A stretch of 55,515 nucleotides of DNA from Candidatus Magasanikiibacteriota bacterium (GTDB lineage Bacteria; Patescibacteriota; Patescibacteriia; Magasanikbacterales; UBA922). Below are positions 2,866 through 26,317 of this stretch, piece by piece. Location of the stretch: contig JAAZJX010000002.1 of assembly GCA_012800155.1 (NCBI GenBank), positions 1-55,515 of the forward strand. Reading direction: 5' to 3'. Every line of letters starts with the position of its first letter. Positions within the stretch are counted from its first letter, which is position 1. The translations under genes were made by a program, and so were the position numbers. The notes under the pieces were generated by a model. The model did no database searches. It was not told the origin of the DNA and saw only the letters and a list, made by a program, of their open reading frames with translations.

Positions 2866-4194
2866 TTAATATTCCATTTCAAAAATTCCTAAGATATTAG
2901 CAATTTTACCAAAAAAATAAATTTTTCTATTTTTGATATTATTTCCAATACTATAAATTTCAATATTTTTTAGAAGTTCATGATTGGTGAAATATCGAGA
3001 ATTGAAACCAACTAGACGATTGTTATATAAAATTAAAGTAGTGTCATTATTTTCTGTAGATAAAATATTTTTGATAACTTCACTAGTGCGAGTATATAGT
3101 TCATATTCACCATTTTCTTTTAGAGACCACATTTCCCAAGGTGTCCAAGCAAACCAACCATTATTATCAGAATAAGGTATGAGATTATCAATATTTATTT
3201 CATAATTAATAATAACATGGGAATCTTTCAAAGTACCAGCAAGCACTTTTTCTTCTTTTTTCATTAAGATAAATTTATTTTTAAAATAAATTATTTTTTG
3301 AATATTTGGTTCAGATAAATGAAAAAAATCAAGATTATTTTTTATTAATTTTTTGTTTTCTAAAATCCAAATATTTTCTTGATTATCTACATACCAGACA
3401 GAGGAAGTAGTTGTAGCTAAATTATTTTTGTTTTTATTACTTAATTTTATTATTTTATTATTTTGATTTACAAATAAAATTCCTGAATGTTGATTGTTGG
3501 ACCATTGATAAGAATTTATATCTTTATTAAAAGAATAATTTTCTGATAATTCTGGATTATTTGGATTAAAAATTTCAATATTTATTTTATTTTTTTTAAT
3601 AGTTTTTATCATGGCAAAATCACTATATTGAGACCAATTAACTTCTAGATTGTCAGTCATAACTTCTTCACGAATAATTTGATTTATTTTTTTATTGTTA
3701 GTGTTGTATAAGAATAATTCAAAAATTGAATCTTTTTTTGTGAGAATGATAATATAAACACCATTGCGATTAGGATAAATATTTTGAATGTTTGAGGGAT
3801 CTATATCTTCTAAAATTTTAATTGGTAAACTTTGTTTAAAAAGTGTGATATCTTTGATATAAGTAGTTTTTTTACTTTCTATATTTACATCTTTGATCCA
3901 GTCATGATAGCCTTCTTTTTGAATTTTTACATTATAAATACCAGGAGCACGATTATTTAATTTAATAGGAATAGTTTGGTTTATTTTTATATTATTTAAA
4001 TAAATACTTGAATCTTTGGGTTTGATATCAATGTTGATTACTCCAGTTTGTCTAATTTCTCGTTTTTTCCAATCATAACGATAACCAACAGTATAAGAAA
4101 TAACAATTGGTGAAATAACAAAAAAAGAAAAAATAAAGAATGACATTATAATTATGCGTACTCGGCGATTTAAATTTGTTTTAGGATAATCCAT
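2866..4194 (-). CDS. Membrane-anchored PEGA-domain-like protein
   Basis: N-terminal TM helix (IIIMSFFIFSFFVISPIVISY), then a PEGA-like beta domain (IDIKPKDSSIYLNNIKINQTIPIKLNNRAPGIYNVKIQKEGYHDW). The remainder resembles no family I recognise. Confidence 0.45.
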   Translation of the reverse strand: MDYPKTNLNRRVRIIIMSFFIFSFFVISPIVISYTVGYRYDWKKREIRQTGVINIDIKPKDSSIYLNNIKINQTIPIKLNNRAPGIYNVKIQKEGYHDWIKDVNIESKKTTYIKDITLFKQSLPIKILEDIDPSNIQNIYPNRNGVYIIILTKKDSIFELFLYNTNNKKINQIIREEVMTDNLEVNWSQYSDFAMIKTIKKNKINIEIFNPNNPELSENYSFNKDINSYQWSNNQHSGILFVNQNNKIIKLSNKNKNNLATTTSSVWYVDNQENIWILENKKLIKNNLDFFHLSEPNIQKIIYFKNKFILMKKEEKVLAGTLKDSHVIINYEINIDNLIPYSDNNGWFAWTPWEMWSLKENGEYELYTRTSEVIKNILSTENNDTTLILYNNRLVGFNSRYFTNHELLKNIEIYSIGNNIKNRKIYFFGKIANILGIFEMEY

Positions 4195-4272
4195 AAAAAA
4201 TTCAACTTGATTATGTTTGTTTTTTGCTATACAATAATACTACTGTAAATTATCTATAAAATCAACTTTTTT

Positions 4273-5529
4273 ATGGGGAAATATATTATTCAGGGAGGAA
4301 AAACTTTGTCAGGAGTTTTGCCAGTTAGTGGAGCTAAAAATGCTACTTTACCAATTTTAGCTTGTACTTTAATTGCTGAAGGAACATATTTTTTAAATAA
4401 TGTTCCAGCTTTAAAAGATGTGGAAGTTATGATTAAATTGTTGGAACATTTTGGTTTAAAAATTGAAAAAATTGCTCAAAATTCTTATAAAATAATAAAT
4501 AATGGATTGCAAACTTTGGAAGCGCCTTATGAATTAGTTAGTATTATGAGAGCTTCTTTTTTAGTTATGGGACCACTCTTGGCTCATCGAGGTGAAGCTC
4601 GTGTATCTATGCCCGGCGGTTGTGCGATTGGTAATCGACCAATAGATATTCATCTAAAAGGTTTTGAACAATTAGGAGCAACTATAAAAACTGAACATGG
4701 ATTTATTTCAGCCAAAGCTAAAAATTTGATTGGTAAAGAAATTTATCTTGATTTTCCTACTGTTACAGGCACAGAAAATCTTATTATGGCAGCTGTTTTA
4801 TCCAAAGGAATAACTATTTTGAATAATGCTGCGCGCGAACCAGAAGTAGAAGATTTAGGTAATTTTTTAAATAAAATGGGAGCGAAGATTACTGGTTTGG
4901 GCACAGATAGAATTATTATTGAAGGAGTAGAAAAATTATTTCCTTGTGAATATAATATTATTCCTGATCGAATTGAAGCTGGAACTTTTTTAATTTTATC
5001 TGCTTTGACTGGAGGAAATATTGTGATTAAGGGAGTTAATATGGAACATTTAACTAGTTTTAAAACTAAATTAGAAGAAATAGGCATAAATTTTAAAATT
5101 AATGGTGATGAAGTTCAAGTTCAAGCTGATCTTAATAATTTTAAACCAACTAATATAATAACTTTACCTTATCCTGGTTTTCCAACTGATCTTCAAGCTC
5201 AAACAATTGTTTTACTTGCTATGATTAAAGGAAATAGTGAGATGAAAGAAACAATTTTTGAAAATCGTTTTAGACATGTTCCTGAACTCAATCGTATGGG
5301 CGCAAATATAAAAATAGAAGGCAATGTAGCCAGTATTAACGGACCAACAAATTTTCAAGGTGCTGAAGTTGAAGCTACTGATTTAAGAGCTGGCGCTTGT
5401 CTTGTGATTGCTGGATTGATTTCTTCTAATACTACAATTCTTAATAATATTGAACACATTGAACGCGGTTATGAAAATTTAGTAGAAAGATTACAAGCAA
5501 TTGGCGCAGAAATTAAAAAAAGTGAATAA
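4273..5529 (+). CDS. murA: UDP-N-acetylglucosamine 1-carboxyvinyltransferase
   Basis: [23 protein letters not shown]-terminus, active-site loop [12 protein letters not shown] with the catalytic Cys, and the C-terminal HIERGYE motif. Confidence 0.95.
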
Positions 5530-23497: not shown

Positions 23498-23526
23498 TTG
23501 ACAATGAACTTGAAAAATGCTATTTT
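23498..23526 (+). promoter_or_regulatory. Extended -10 sigma-70-like promoter of the GC-rich insert gene
   Basis: TTGACA (23498-23503), 17-nt spacer ending in TGC (TGn extension), then TATTTT (23521-23526). Confidence 0.55.
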
Positions 23527-23530
23527 AAAG

Positions 23531-23549
23531 TGTTACTATGTATGTAACA
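23531..23549 (+). promoter_or_regulatory. Operator-like inverted repeat at the predicted transcription start
   Basis: TGTTAC (23531-23536), 7-nt spacer, GTAACA (23544-23549). It lies immediately downstream of the -10, the classic position for a repressor. Confidence 0.4.
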
Positions 23550-23611
23550 TTTTGTTTTTGTTCTTTTTATTTTTGCGTAAAAATAATACGCTTAACCAAT
23601 GGAGGTAAAAA

Positions 23612-24943
23612 ATGAATAGTCAGCTACTGAACGGACAATTTCCTTATCTTCAGTCTGGTCAGGTTTATGCTGACTGGACTGGAGCGGCTTTGCCACCCGT
23701 GTCTTTAATTGACGAGTGGTCAGATCATTTACGTAATATTCTGTTAGGAAATCCTCATTCTGGTCACGAACCATCATTGCGGGCAGCTGAAGAAATTGAA
23801 GCAGCTCGGGAAGCTGTACTTCAGTTTTTAAATGCAGACCCAAAAGAATATGAGGTTATTTTCACTAGCGGAGCAACGGAAGCCATCAGACTCTTAGAGC
23901 ATTACAACTTTGGGGTTGGTGGACAGCTTCTTCTTACGGCTGATAATCATAATTCAATAAATGGATTACGAGAAACAGCTAAGAGATCTGGAGCTATATT
24001 TACTTATGCTCCGATCAAAGGTGTAGGAGAAGGATTGGTTCTTGACACGCAGGAATTAACCCGTCTGCTCAATTATCCACGTTCTAGATATGGAAATAGA
24101 CTTTTTGCTTATCCTGCAAAGAGCAATTATTCCGGTAATTTGCATTCTTTGCATTGGGTAGATTATGCCCATAGACGTGGATGGGATGTCCTTTTGGACG
24201 CAGCAGCTTTCTTGGCTAATGATCAGTTGGATTTAAGTCAGGTGAAACCTGATTTTGTTCCGATCAGTTTTTATAAGCTGTTTGGATTTCCAACTGGTGT
24301 TGGGGCTTTGGTGATTCATCGTCGGATGTTTACCAAGCTTCACAAGAAATGGTTCACGGGTGGTCCCATCATGTTGGTATCAGTTCAACGTGATTTCTTT
24401 GTACCAGATGCTCGTGGAGCAACTCGGTATGAAGATGGTAGCCCGAACTTCGGGATGATTGGGGCTGTGAAGAACGGACTGGATTTTCTAAATTCTCTTG
24501 GAGGAGATCGCAAAGCTCATGCAGTAGCAATAGCAAATGATGTCTGGGATATTCTTTATGAAACAAAAGAAAATAGTAATGCCCAGATTATCATTCATAC
24601 TCCTAGAGGAAATGATATTATCGCCTTCAGTGTGGTGAAGGATGGTAAGATTATTAATCCAGGACTGTTTGAAAAAATGACAAGTGATAGGGGTTTTTTT
24701 GTTCGCGTGGGTTGTTTTTGTAATCCAGGCGTCAACGAAAAAATACATGGATACTCTGTAGATGAAGTTATTCCGCGTGCAACTGACGAAGTTATTTTTG
24801 GTTTGGAAGAAATCAAAAGAAGGCGTCAATATTTTGCGAGAACAGCGGTAGGCTCTATTAGAGCATCCTTTGGTTATTCTAATAGCACTATTGATGTTAT
24901 TAGAATTTCAGGACATATGAAAAATATCTTGCGAGAGATTTAA
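23612..24943 (+). CDS. Class V aminotransferase-fold PLP enzyme resembling the N-terminal (cysteine-desulfurase-like) domain of molybdenum cofactor sulfurase; no MOSC domain
   Basis: Strong SD (GGAGG, 23601-23605) ahead of the ATG at 23612. Motifs: LGNPHSGHEPS, VIFTSGATEAIRLL, NHNSINGLRE, YPAKSNYSG, LLDAAAF, PISFYKLFGFPTGVGALVIH (Schiff-base Lys) and GSIRASFGY. G+C is far above the flanking DNA. Confidence 0.75.
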   Translation: MNSQLLNGQFPYLQSGQVYADWTGAALPPVSLIDEWSDHLRNILLGNPHSGHEPSLRAAEEIEAAREAVLQFLNADPKEYEVIFTSGATEAIRLLEHYNFGVGGQLLLTADNHNSINGLRETAKRSGAIFTYAPIKGVGEGLVLDTQELTRLLNYPRSRYGNRLFAYPAKSNYSGNLHSLHWVDYAHRRGWDVLLDAAAFLANDQLDLSQVKPDFVPISFYKLFGFPTGVGALVIHRRMFTKLHKKWFTGGPIMLVSVQRDFFVPDARGATRYEDGSPNFGMIGAVKNGLDFLNSLGGDRKAHAVAIANDVWDILYETKENSNAQIIIHTPRGNDIIAFSVVKDGKIINPGLFEKMTSDRGFFVRVGCFCNPGVNEKIHGYSVDEVIPRATDEVIFGLEEIKRRRQYFARTAVGSIRASFGYSNSTIDVIRISGHMKNILREI

Positions 24944-24974
24944 TTTCTCTTACTTTCATTGGTTGAAAAAGGGG

Positions 24975-25003
24975 AAAGAGTGTTCCACACAAACACTTTT
25001 TCT
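24975..25003 (+). terminator. Weak hairpin plus T-run in the 3' UTR of the insert gene (leaky terminator or 3' stabiliser)
   Basis: AGTGTT (24979-24984) / AACACT (24992-24997), loop CCACACA. The stem is extended by A-T pairs, and TTTTT overlaps its 3' side. Confidence 0.35.
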
Positions 25004-25008
25004 CCTAC

Positions 25009-25072
25009 AACCTCTAACAATGATTTTGTTACTGATGAGTCCAAAAAAGTTTAAGATAAAGGACGAAAGGTT
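25009..25072 (+). ncRNA. Hammerhead self-cleaving ribozyme, type III topology
   Basis: Layout: stem III AACCU (25009-25013) / AGGUU (25068-72); cleavage-site C17 at 25014; stem I UAACAA (25015-20) / UUGUUA (25026-31) with loop UGAUU; core CUGAUGA (25032-38); stem II GUCC (25039-42) / GGAC (25061-64) with an 18-nt A-rich loop; GAA (25065-67). All invariant core positions are satisfied, along with A15.1-U16.1, G10.1-C11.1 and an NUH triplet (CUC). Confidence 0.85.
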
Positions 25073-25076
25073 AATT

Positions 25077-25112
25077 AAAAAACATCTTAATTTAATTAAG
25101 ATGTTTTTTGTT
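25077..25112. terminator. Bidirectional rho-independent terminator between the insert and the histidine kinase gene
   Basis: Perfect 25-nt palindrome AACATCTTAATTTAATTAAGATGTT (25081-25105), flanked by an A-run (25077-80) and a T-run (25106-11). Confidence 0.75.
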
Positions 25113-25117
25113 TTTTA

Positions 25118-26317
25118 TTATTTTTTAATTGGTAAAAAGATAGTAAATTTTGTACCTTTGTTTAATTTACTTTCTACTGTAATTTTTCCATGATGACCAT
25201 CTATAATTTTCTTTATAATAAATAATTCTAAACCACTACCATCAGTATACATATTTTTAGCATTAGAAGCTCGGCTAAATTTTTTGAACATTTTTTTGAG
25301 TTCTTTTTGTGGTATTCCTATACCATTATCACTTACAGTAAAAGAAATATATTTGTTGTCTGATTTTGTTTCAATTTTAATTTTACCTTGTTTCGTTCGT
25401 ACATCTCTTGTTTCAGGAGTAGTACCAATTGAAGGAGTGTATTTTAAAGCATTATCTATTAAATTGAAGATTGCTTGACTTAAATATTGTTCATAGCCAA
25501 GAATAATTGGTAATTTTTGTTTAGGTTTTTTCCATTCAATAATTGTTTGTCTTTTTTCAGCTTCAAATTTTATTTCAGTAATAGCTTTTTTTATTAAGTT
25601 TTCTAGTTGTATTTCTTGAGCATCTTTTTTATTGATTGCCAAACCAACAGTATCTAATTCTGAAGTTACTAAAATATCAGAAATAATTTGTTGAAGTTTT
25701 TTACTTTTTTCAAAAGCATTATTAATATAAATTTTCTTTTCTTTTGAAGAAATTTTATCAAAATCACCTTCATTCATCATTTCCATTGTATTTTTAATTA
25801 CACTTACTGGTGTACGAAGTTGATGAGAAGCTACATCTAAAAATTCTGAACGCATTTTTAATAATTTTTCTAAATGTAAATTTTTCTTTTTTAAACTACG
25901 AGTTTGTTCTTCAACTTTATCTTCTAATTTTTCAGTTAATTCTTCTAAAGCTTCTTTGGCTTTTTTTTCAGAAAAGCTTGATTCAATAATTTTCTCTGTA
26001 CTTTTGTTAAAAAAATATCCATAAACAGTAGCAAAAACAAAAATAGTAATAATTACTGATTTTAAAATTTCACCATCTATGATTAAAGATATAATTAATA
26101 ATATAGAAACAAGTAATATAGTAATTACTAAATATTGGAAAAAAAGACATTGATTAAATTTAGAAGTACAATATTGACATCTTTTTGATGGAGGAGCATT
26201 TAATGTTCTGGCTGTAAAACAATTTTTATTTACATAATTTGGACAACCTAATTTATTGGAAGAACAATTTTCAGAACAATTAATACAATTTGAATTATTA
26301 TTTGTTAGGGGTTTCAT
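25118..26317 (-). CDS. Sensor histidine kinase with a Cys-rich N-terminal segment and two TM helices; no cognate response regulator in the window
   Basis: HisKA H-box (ASHQLRTPVSVI). HATPase N/G boxes (IDNALKYTP, DNGIGIP, GSGLELF). Coiled-coil linker. The N-terminal 57 aa hold 8 Cys (C11, 14, 18, 25, 33, 47, 50, 57; CINCSENC...GCP). Confidence 0.85.
   Translation of the reverse strand: MKPLTNNNSNCINCSENCSSNKLGCPNYVNKNCFTARTLNAPPSKRCQYCTSKFNQCLFFQYLVITILLVSILLIISLIIDGEILKSVIITIFVFATVYGYFFNKSTEKIIESSFSEKKAKEALEELTEKLEDKVEEQTRSLKKKNLHLEKLLKMRSEFLDVASHQLRTPVSVIKNTMEMMNEGDFDKISSKEKKIYINNAFEKSKKLQQIISDILVTSELDTVGLAINKKDAQEIQLENLIKKAITEIKFEAEKRQTIIEWKKPKQKLPIILGYEQYLSQAIFNLIDNALKYTPSIGTTPETRDVRTKQGKIKIETKSDNKYISFTVSDNGIGIPQKELKKMFKKFSRASNAKNMYTDGSGLELFIIKKIIDGHHGKITVESKLNKGTKFTIFLPIKK

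Follow-up and report, generated by a model that had tools for sequence, protein, structure and literature searches.

Hammerhead ribozymes of types I and III in bacterial intergenic regions, type II forms, an association with prophages and gene-flanking arrays were reported in 2010-2011; thousands of bacterial hammerheads are now known, and the literature continues to treat their biological role as unsettled (PMC6155905, PMC3088659). The majority lie in prophages beside unconserved genes, a setting that offers few starting points for hypotheses; for those that flank prophage genes, cutting of polycistronic transcripts into gene-length mRNAs has been proposed (PMC3088659). The subject of this study is a predicted type III hammerhead at positions 25009-25072 of a 55,515-nucleotide (nt) stretch of contig JAAZJX010000002.1 from a Candidatus Magasanikiibacteriota bacterium, the whole of which (55.5 kb) is called the window. 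It lies in the 3' untranslated region (UTR) of a gene for a class-V aminotransferase, between a strong hairpin (hairpin B) and an intrinsic terminator. Judged by its sequence, the element adds a further case to a known class of ribozymes and agrees with every type III sequence and structure criterion. An earlier interpretation made from the letters alone (the sequence-only reading) had taken a hammerhead in such a position for something undescribed; since intergenic type I, II and III hammerheads have been known in bacteria since 2010-2011 (PMC6155905, PMC3088659), this claim of novelty was overstated. Unlike most bacterial cases, one ribozyme is kept here with one conserved metabolic gene across deeply diverged lineages of the Candidate Phyla Radiation (CPR), in a housekeeping setting. 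Its place after an open reading frame (ORF) and a strong hairpin leads to a testable idea, namely that bacterial hammerheads make protected mRNA 3' ends.

All elements of the motif were found on the + strand at the positions given by the sequence-only reading (Table 1). The pair A15.1-U16.1 is U25013-A25068, G10.1-C11.1 is G25039-C25064 and H17 is C25014, a residue other than G. Stems I and II are closed by loops while stem III is open, which is the type III topology; reading of the sequence and a descriptor search both confirmed that every invariant hammerhead nucleotide is present in this arrangement. The type III descriptor, which we wrote ourselves, returned this one site only in the window, on both strands and even with lenient settings, and a covariance model (R1, described below) likewise found a single copy. 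The chance level was estimated with 400 first-order-Markov windows that reproduced the dinucleotide frequencies of the window and amounted to 44 Mb. A medium-stringency descriptor requiring stems of at least 4/3/3 bp, G10.1-C11.1, A15.1-U16.1 and H17 gave 0 matches in these simulated windows, in line with the earlier view that a chance match is very unlikely, and a lenient core-only descriptor gave 0.24 matches per simulated window. When the 72-nt segment was folded in isolation, the minimum free energy (MFE) structure had the hammerhead shape, at -9.2 kcal/mol and with an ensemble frequency of 30%. A search of the aminotransferase 5' UTR for a second ribozyme, which would allow circularisation, gave no match. 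An ORF of 76 amino acids (aa) at 24963-25193 overlaps the motif and was judged non-coding, since loop 2 and the spacers differ by indels among relatives.

Table 1. Predicted features of the aminotransferase transcription unit and its 3' UTR (window coordinates; dG, folding free energy in kcal/mol)
Feature	Position	Strand	Details
Candidate sigma-70-type promoter of the aminotransferase gene	23498..23539	+	Consensus scan; block kept in syntenic relatives (alignment A3)
Hairpin A (GCGUA...UACGC)	23575..23591	+	Directly 5' of box 1
Box 1, UUAACCAAUGGAGGUAA	23592..23608	+	Shine-Dalgarno (SD) sequence GGAGG 23601-05; complementary to box 1'
Coding sequence, 443 aa, class-V pyridoxal phosphate-dependent aminotransferase, cysteine-desulfurase-like	23612..24943	+	Pfam PF00266, E = 1.8e-33
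Aminotransferase start and stop	ATG 23612, stop 24941-43	+	ORF
Box 1', UUACUUUCAUUGGUUGA, anti-SD element	24950..24966	+	Pairs with box 1; just 3' of the stop codon
Hairpin B	24970..25006	+	15-bp stem, 7-nt loop, dG -19.3; ends 2 nt before stem III
AC spacer	between hairpin B and hammerhead	+	Sequence
Type III hammerhead ribozyme	25009-25072	+	Stems I-III, full core; descriptor search, conservation, covariance model
Stem III	AACCU 25009-13 / AGGUU 25068-72	+	5 bp, open end
C17 (H17)	25014	+	Predicted cleavage between C25014 and U25015
Stem I	UAACAA 25015-20 / UUGUUA 25026-31	+	6 bp, loop UGAUU
Core C3 U4 G5 A6 N7 G8 A9 = CUGAUGA	25032-38	+	Between stems I and II
Stem II	GUCC 25039-42 / GGAC 25061-64	+	4 bp, 18-nt loop 2
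G12 A13 A14 = GAA	25065-67	+	Between stems II and III
AAUU spacer	between hammerhead and terminator	+	Sequence
Bidirectional intrinsic terminator	25077..25118	both	A-tract, 16-bp AU-rich hairpin 25077-25112, U-tract; dG -13.8

Conservation of the motif was analysed in loci carrying the same gene (numbered L003 onward). In an intergenic alignment the hammerhead was present in every syntenic relative (L003-L006 and L008/9), with an invariant core, a variable loop 2 and compensatory changes in stem I (A-U to G-C, C-G to U-A or U-G). Pairing was scored in alignment A4, which comprised five sequences and was derived from synteny, not fitted to structure. All 75 pair cells were standard pairs, compared with 19-48% paired in slid controls; five pairs had changed on both sides (three in stem I and two in stem II), a number reached in 0 of 500 shuffles, and G-U pairs appeared only when the alignment was read as + strand. 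The sequence-only reading had suggested looking in related genomes for the motif and for covariation, and for stems disrupted without compensation as grounds for rejection. The motif was indeed found in relatives, with compensated substitutions in its stems I and II and with all cells of A4 paired.

More distant cases were sought by a descriptor scan of 89 loci and then by covariance-model searches. A ribozyme was found directly 3' of the orthologous gene in L013, a Saccharibacteria chromosome (53% protein identity), with stem I UAUUGA/UCAAUA, stem II GCUC/GAGC and a stem III of 7 bp, and in L136 from Komeilibacteria (52% protein identity), with stem I UGUCGA/UCGGCA and stem II GCCC/GGGU. The core was invariant in five of the six gene-linked variants; the exception, L136, has CUGACGA, a change at the variable position N7 only, together with G10.1-U11.1. 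With its core and its compensated stems, 25009-25072 on the + strand is very probably a bona fide hammerhead under purifying selection.

L013 was the only carrier among 81 aminotransferase homolog loci searched with model R1, and L136 the only one among eight further CPR homolog loci; the ribozyme was not found in 79 genome-collection loci, in L007 or in the seven further CPR loci L131-L135 and L137-L139. In a neighbour-joining protein tree the ribozyme-bearing lineages were scattered, which implies that the module was lost repeatedly or has spread. The hairpins 5' of the ribozyme in L013 (4278-4346) and L136 (4311-4357) are clearly homologous to each other (GGGAAGAUGG...CCAUCUCCC). Since the corresponding proteins share only 60% identity and do not pair as sisters in the tree, hairpin and ribozyme may move together as a single module. 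In L007 (JGI 3300010353, 3896-5460), an aminotransferase nested in the window's clade (75% identity) lies in another gene context at about 50% GC. This locus keeps box 1' and hairpin B without the hammerhead, homology breaking off at ACAA, 4 nt short of the position that corresponds to the cleavage site, and a hairpin element GTTCCCAGAACGCGCATTCTGGGAAC is repeated up- and downstream of its aminotransferase.

Sister hammerheads were collected from public collections using the pattern CCTCTA-N(9-25)-TACTGATGAG-N(12-40)-CGAAAGG, derived from positions common to the window and L013. Matches were obtained in 2 viral and 39 metagenome contigs, and 35 of these 41 contained a full type III hammerhead by the descriptor, though the pattern had left the stem interiors unspecified. 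A subset has the window's architecture, with a stem I of 6-7 bp, a UGAUU-type loop 1, a GUCC/GGAC stem II and an A-flanked loop 2 of 12-22 nt; loop 1 (UGAUU/UUAUU) and the A-flanked loop 2 are features of the class. A hairpin of dG <= -12 kcal/mol ending at most 5 nt 5' of stem III preceded 30 of 38 distinct hammerheads, compared with 13% of 1175 random windows from the same loci (Fisher p = 4e-19), and many of these hairpins were clamped by a G-run and a C-run. Same-strand ORFs of at least 80 aa ended no more than 150 nt upstream of 17 of 28 hammerheads (19% for random positions), and a terminator-like hairpin with a T-run was found within about 60 nt downstream in 17 of 38. A co-directional gene, and no terminator, comes after the ribozyme of L136, which leaves ORF-hairpin-ribozyme as the constant unit. 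When known non-coding RNAs were sought upstream of the sister hammerheads, only tRNAs were found. Some contigs have two to four type III hammerheads, all on the same strand and clustered in a few kb (L129, 2152-7494; L099, 1858-3344; L120, 11065-12412; also L107 and L112), much like the gene-flanking arrays of prophages (PMC3088659). In L111 (340-7582), ten tRNA genes on one strand accompany a hammerhead at the contig end, and this may be a phage or tRNA-array region.

Hairpin B had been described in the sequence-only reading as a weak hairpin at 24975-25003. Its stem is in fact longer (15 bp, about -19 kcal/mol) and covaries, six pairs showing double compensatory changes in relatives, and such a hairpin is a hallmark of the class. 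The terminator hairpin recognised in that reading at 25077-25112 does fold, and its stem covaries in relatives as well. The terminator is shared with a convergent histidine-kinase gene on the - strand, the stop of which ends at 25118; our consensus scan omits it because the stem has fewer than three G-C pairs. Read on the - strand, hairpin B is followed by UUUUUC and resembles a second terminator for read-through from the kinase operon; this U-run is not conserved in L008.

We consider it probable that self-cleavage takes place in vivo and serves to set a hairpin-capped 3' end of the aminotransferase mRNA. Transcription would start at the promoter near 23500, stop at the terminator (25077-25118) and give a monocistronic message. 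Once stems I-III had formed, the 2'-OH of C25014 would attack its own 3' phosphate, cleavage being placed 3' of this residue because of the established hammerhead chemistry. The upstream product would be an mRNA ending in hairpin B and an 8-nt tail, ACAACCUC, with a 2',3'-cyclic phosphate, and the downstream product a 5'-OH fragment of about 100 nt made up of the ribozyme body and the terminator. The defined, hairpin-capped end would then stabilise the upstream message, whatever lies downstream. In-vivo cleavage and a purpose in 3'-end definition or stabilisation are what we infer from the sequence comparisons, and this purpose is favoured because the ORF and the hairpin are the only constant partners of the ribozyme across lineages.

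The layout at this locus, with convergent genes and a common bidirectional terminator, could also be taken to mean that the ribozyme acts mainly downstream, by releasing ribozyme and terminator together as a small stable 5'-OH RNA or by shielding the mRNA from read-through and from antisense contacts with the convergent kinase operon, hairpin B being incidental. In other loci the class lies between co-directional genes, like the prophage hammerheads proposed to cut polycistronic RNAs (PMC3088659). However, neither loop 2 nor the spacer to the terminator is conserved in sequence, which makes a trans-acting seed unlikely, and the downstream side varies between a terminator, a convergent gene and a co-directional gene whereas the upstream hairpin is the constant partner. 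A mainly downstream action thus appears quite improbable.

Several points weigh against self-cleavage that defines the 3' end. The first is the Rfam score. At gathering thresholds (GA), Rfam reported only a tRNA at 665-735 in the window and no hammerhead. In a permissive scan Hammerhead_3 (RF00008) aligned to 25015-25067 with 16.5 bits, compared with a GA of 48.5; this local alignment omits stem III and penalises a 10-nt insertion in loop 2, the low score being due to a long, A-rich loop 2 (12-18 nt) on a stem of just 4 bp. The sequence-only reading had proposed this very comparison and would have rejected the motif on a score below gathering. The motif failed the check, yet the low score is uninformative, since sister hammerheads also score below GA. 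Rfam reported none at gathering in any of 20 loci that contain them, and when eight of these loci were re-scanned in E-value mode, compact members reached 30-47 bits (significant but below GA) and members with a long loop 2 failed to reach E = 0.05. We judge that the RF00008 GA does not discriminate for this class and that the threshold, not the motif, is at fault; a sizeable class of hammerheads with long loop 2 escapes the Rfam type III model. Model R1, with a seed of 16 metagenomic hammerheads of which none came from the window's lineage, aligned at full length to 25010-25071 with 70.4 bits (E = 5e-20), the next-best match in the window having 13 bits. Part of this score is circular, because the seeds had been gathered with the window-derived pattern given above and the positions specified in it are not independent.

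Further points of this kind concern the fold and the distribution of the motif. The isolated hammerhead fold is only marginally stable and no better than shuffles (z = -0.47). Tertiary contacts between loops 1 and 2 are required for fast cleavage at physiological Mg2+; when the variants were compared by eye, 3-5 bp of Watson-Crick or wobble pairing appeared possible between these loops, in no consistent register. Stem III in A4 showed no double compensatory change and one single-sided change, and catalysis by 25009-25072 is predicted from agreement with the sequence consensus. Most CPR homologs of the aminotransferase lack the ribozyme, which is thus not essential to the gene. A terminator hairpin normally already protects a 3' end, so that the selective benefit of adding a ribozyme is not obvious.

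The score below gathering, the ordinary stability of the fold and the patchy distribution among homologs are also what would be expected of a chance match, or of a decaying mobile-element or phage relic without present function. The comparative data already contradict this explanation: the core is invariant and stem changes are compensated across lineages at 52-82% protein identity, a model with seeds from outside the lineage gave 70 bits, and the neighbourhood is a housekeeping one. Together with the empty result in the simulated windows, they leave a chance or relic origin very improbable.

The 3' UTR of the window's clade contains a second conserved element, box 1'. Its core CAUUGGUUGA is invariant in all relatives including L007, and its partner, box 1, ends 3 nt before the ATG. 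Together the two boxes can form a duplex, of 17 bp including 3 G-U wobbles in the window; its counterparts in relatives have 13-16 bp, and the SD sequence lies inside the duplex in every case. Where relatives have 5' GGAGAAA with 3' UUUUUCC, the window has 5' GGAGGUAA with 3' UUACUUUC, a compensatory change, and the remaining box differences between them convert G-C to G-U. Such changes fit pairing of + strand RNA rather than a DNA inverted repeat, and they suggest an mRNA panhandle that masks the SD sequence. In L013, L010 and L012, a 5'-3' duplex was not better than in shuffles. The place of hairpin A is taken in relatives by a hairpin of different sequence (GCGCAUUUUGCGC, GUGCACAAAAGUGCAC, GCGCACAUGAGUGCGC).

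Box 1' can instead pair with the ribozyme. Its GGUUG (24961-65) is complementary to CAACC (25007-11), in the 5' strand of stem III, and its CUUUC (24953-57) to GAAAG (25065-69; G12 to 15.2). When GGUUG:CAACC and UUUC:GAAAG form together, stem III is lost and G12-A14 are no longer free; neither L013 nor L136 has this combination. For the 3' UTR alone, the ribozyme-inactive fold was favoured by 2.7-3.7 kcal/mol in all four clade variants, and RNAalifold also chose the alternative fold. This belongs with the points listed above, because a preference for a fold that destroys stem III means that cleavage may be slow or conditional.

A conditional ribozyme gated by mRNA circularisation would make use of this choice. 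Pairing of box 1' with the SD region would mask the SD sequence and free CAACC, upon which stem III would form and the ribozyme would cut; with the 5' UTR occupied, for example by initiating ribosomes, box 1' would fold onto CAACC and GAAAG and the ribozyme would be inactive. Cleavage would in that case signal, or impose, whether the message is translated. The SD-covering duplex of 13-17 bp in all four clade variants, with its compensatory or G-C to G-U changes in the window, agrees with such gating, as do the preferred inactive fold and a stem III (AACCU/AGGUU) that is unusually invariant, even in L136. On the other hand, L013 and L136 keep the hairpin and the ribozyme without the alternative pairing or a long duplex, and L007 keeps box 1' without the ribozyme and with a 5' partner of only 7 bp. 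The invariance of GGUUG:CAACC gives no covariation support, and a gap of about 3 kcal/mol between MFE values does not exceed the error of such predictions. We therefore regard gating by circularisation as unlikely, though less so than the other alternatives to 3'-end definition.

The gene itself gave SufS/CsdA-like matches in NCBIfam, all below the curated cut-offs. Its putative promoter consists of two overlapping matches, TTGACA-N17-TATTTT and TTGAAA-N18-TACTAT, both with TG; promoter function is predicted from this consensus. ClpB of the window is about 82% identical to proteins named Candidatus Magasanikbacteria, and an identical aminotransferase is listed in 54 blocks of the assembly collection; the 24 contigs read among them reach 873 kb, and one comes from a biogas-fermenter metagenome. 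Homologs at 50-57% identity are widespread in Patescibacteria. Proteins at 75-82% identity occur in the same gene order in L003-L006 and L008/9, namely Peptidase_S11(-), aminotransferase(+), response regulator(-), histidine kinase(-) and DUF4395(-). The relatives have the response-regulator gene (122-123 aa) between the terminator and the histidine kinase (L003, 5407-5775; L006, 1576-1944; L008, 4111-4482), and the window lacks it (25112-25118), leaving an orphan kinase. The genes around the locus are housekeeping genes, not phage genes.

The sequence-only reading had taken the aminotransferase for a foreign single-gene cassette, which the comparison did not bear out. The GC content of the ORF is indeed 0.42, compared with about 0.25 in the flanks, but the gene is syntenic in relatives and an excess over the flanks is found in nearly every CPR locus examined, for example 0.52 against 0.30 and 0.55 against 0.35; the contrast is smallest in L010 (0.38 against 0.32-0.35). 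In L003, L006, L008, L012, L013, L132, L136 and the window the excess amounted to about 0.05-0.24. This suggests either that the gene has been transferred repeatedly between CPR genomes or that its composition is constrained. Given the synteny at 75-82% identity, the sequence comparison indicates that the gene did not arrive here recently by a single insertion.

Box 1 and box 1' flank the ORF tightly as inverted repeats, and they could in principle act as DNA, being recombination sites of a cassette or operator sites. The GC-rich gene and its other genomic context in L007 would suit such a role. Against it, the stems and the box duplex contain G-U wobbles that only + strand RNA can accommodate, synteny is stable across relatives and a hammerhead core has no rationale at the DNA level, so that we give this explanation the least weight of all. 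An integron attC cassette was considered separately and rejected: the core sites RYYYAAC...GTTRRRY are absent, GTTGAAA precedes ACAAC in the wrong order with neither fitting the consensus, and the locus is syntenic.

Compared with the examples in RF00008 (clan CL00010; sTRSV, viroid and intergenic bacterial sequences), the window's ribozyme has the same catalytic core CUGAUGA...GAA, A15.1-U16.1, C17 and G10.1-C11.1, and the same three helices with an open stem III and a 6-bp stem I with a short loop; a 2',3'-cyclic phosphate and a 5'-OH would be expected here too. It differs from them in its long, A-rich loop 2 closed by only 4 bp, and in being chromosomal and single-copy beside a conserved metabolic gene, with no circular RNA replicon or prophage. 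Viroid-like, retrozyme and circular-RNA systems need two ribozyme copies or repeats around a unit, from which a monomer can be cut out and circularised, whereas the window has one hammerhead in 55.5 kb. The prophage hammerheads (PMC3088659) share the position directly after an ORF and resemble the 2-4 copies on one strand of contigs L099, L120 and L129 of the class, and in both groups the function is a proposal. In contrast to the prophage cases, the ribozyme of the window ends a monocistronic message, is followed by a terminator in a housekeeping neighbourhood, and is kept with one gene across CPR lineages together with a tightly coupled upstream hairpin.

In a limited literature search, coupling of an upstream hairpin to a hammerhead was not found described for prophage hammerheads. 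Papers on hammerheads in CPR, Patescibacteria or Saccharibacteria were likewise not found in open-access text, nor was a description of the hairpin-hammerhead-terminator layout, an absence that is weak evidence; the single paper there that mentions both hammerhead and Saccharibacteria deals with another subject. Possibly new aspects are the CPR host range, the conserved link to a single metabolic gene, the composite of hairpin and ribozyme, and the 5'-3' panhandle. A more tentative proposal, which we think doubtful in its full extent, is that the G-clamped hairpin and long-loop type III hammerhead constitute a widespread module, not described so far, that forms 3' ends in uncultured and largely CPR bacteria, with a panhandle switch added in the window's Magasanikbacteria-like clade.

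Pairing between the two ends of a message has counterparts in other bacteria. In Staphylococcus aureus icaR, 5'UTR-3'UTR pairing masks the SD sequence, and Bacillus subtilis hbs mRNA has a 5'/3' UTR interaction. As in icaR-like systems, an evolutionarily maintained anti-SD stretch in the 3' UTR here faces the SD region of its own mRNA, the predicted duplex having 13-17 bp. Unlike in icaR and hbs, the 3' arm adjoins a predicted self-cleaving ribozyme, so that in this one clade the anti-SD element can pair with either the 5' UTR or the ribozyme. If the proposal of a module with a panhandle switch is true, SD masking and ribozyme activation would be two outcomes of one alternative-pairing switch.

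Self-cleaving ribozymes in UTRs are represented by the hammerheads in the 3' UTRs of rodent Clec2 genes, which are discontinuous and eukaryotic, and by glmS, a metabolite-dependent ribozyme of another class in a 5' UTR. In both, as predicted here, a self-cleaving ribozyme in an mRNA UTR alters the fate of the mRNA, but neither has a hairpin-ribozyme-terminator layout. In bacterial operons, endonucleolytic processing occurs beside protective repetitive extragenic palindromic (REP) or intercistronic stem-loops, and RiboJ is a synthetic ribozyme insulator. Common to these systems and to the one proposed here is a cut beside a stable hairpin that leaves a hairpin-protected RNA end. The hairpin of RiboJ lies 3' of the ribozyme and serves a downstream 5' UTR, whereas hairpin B lies 5' and would cap the upstream message. 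In contrast to REP processing, the cut would be made by the RNA itself and not by RNase E/Y, and the module, if real, would be the ribozyme counterpart of mRNA end formation by an RNase and a stem-loop.

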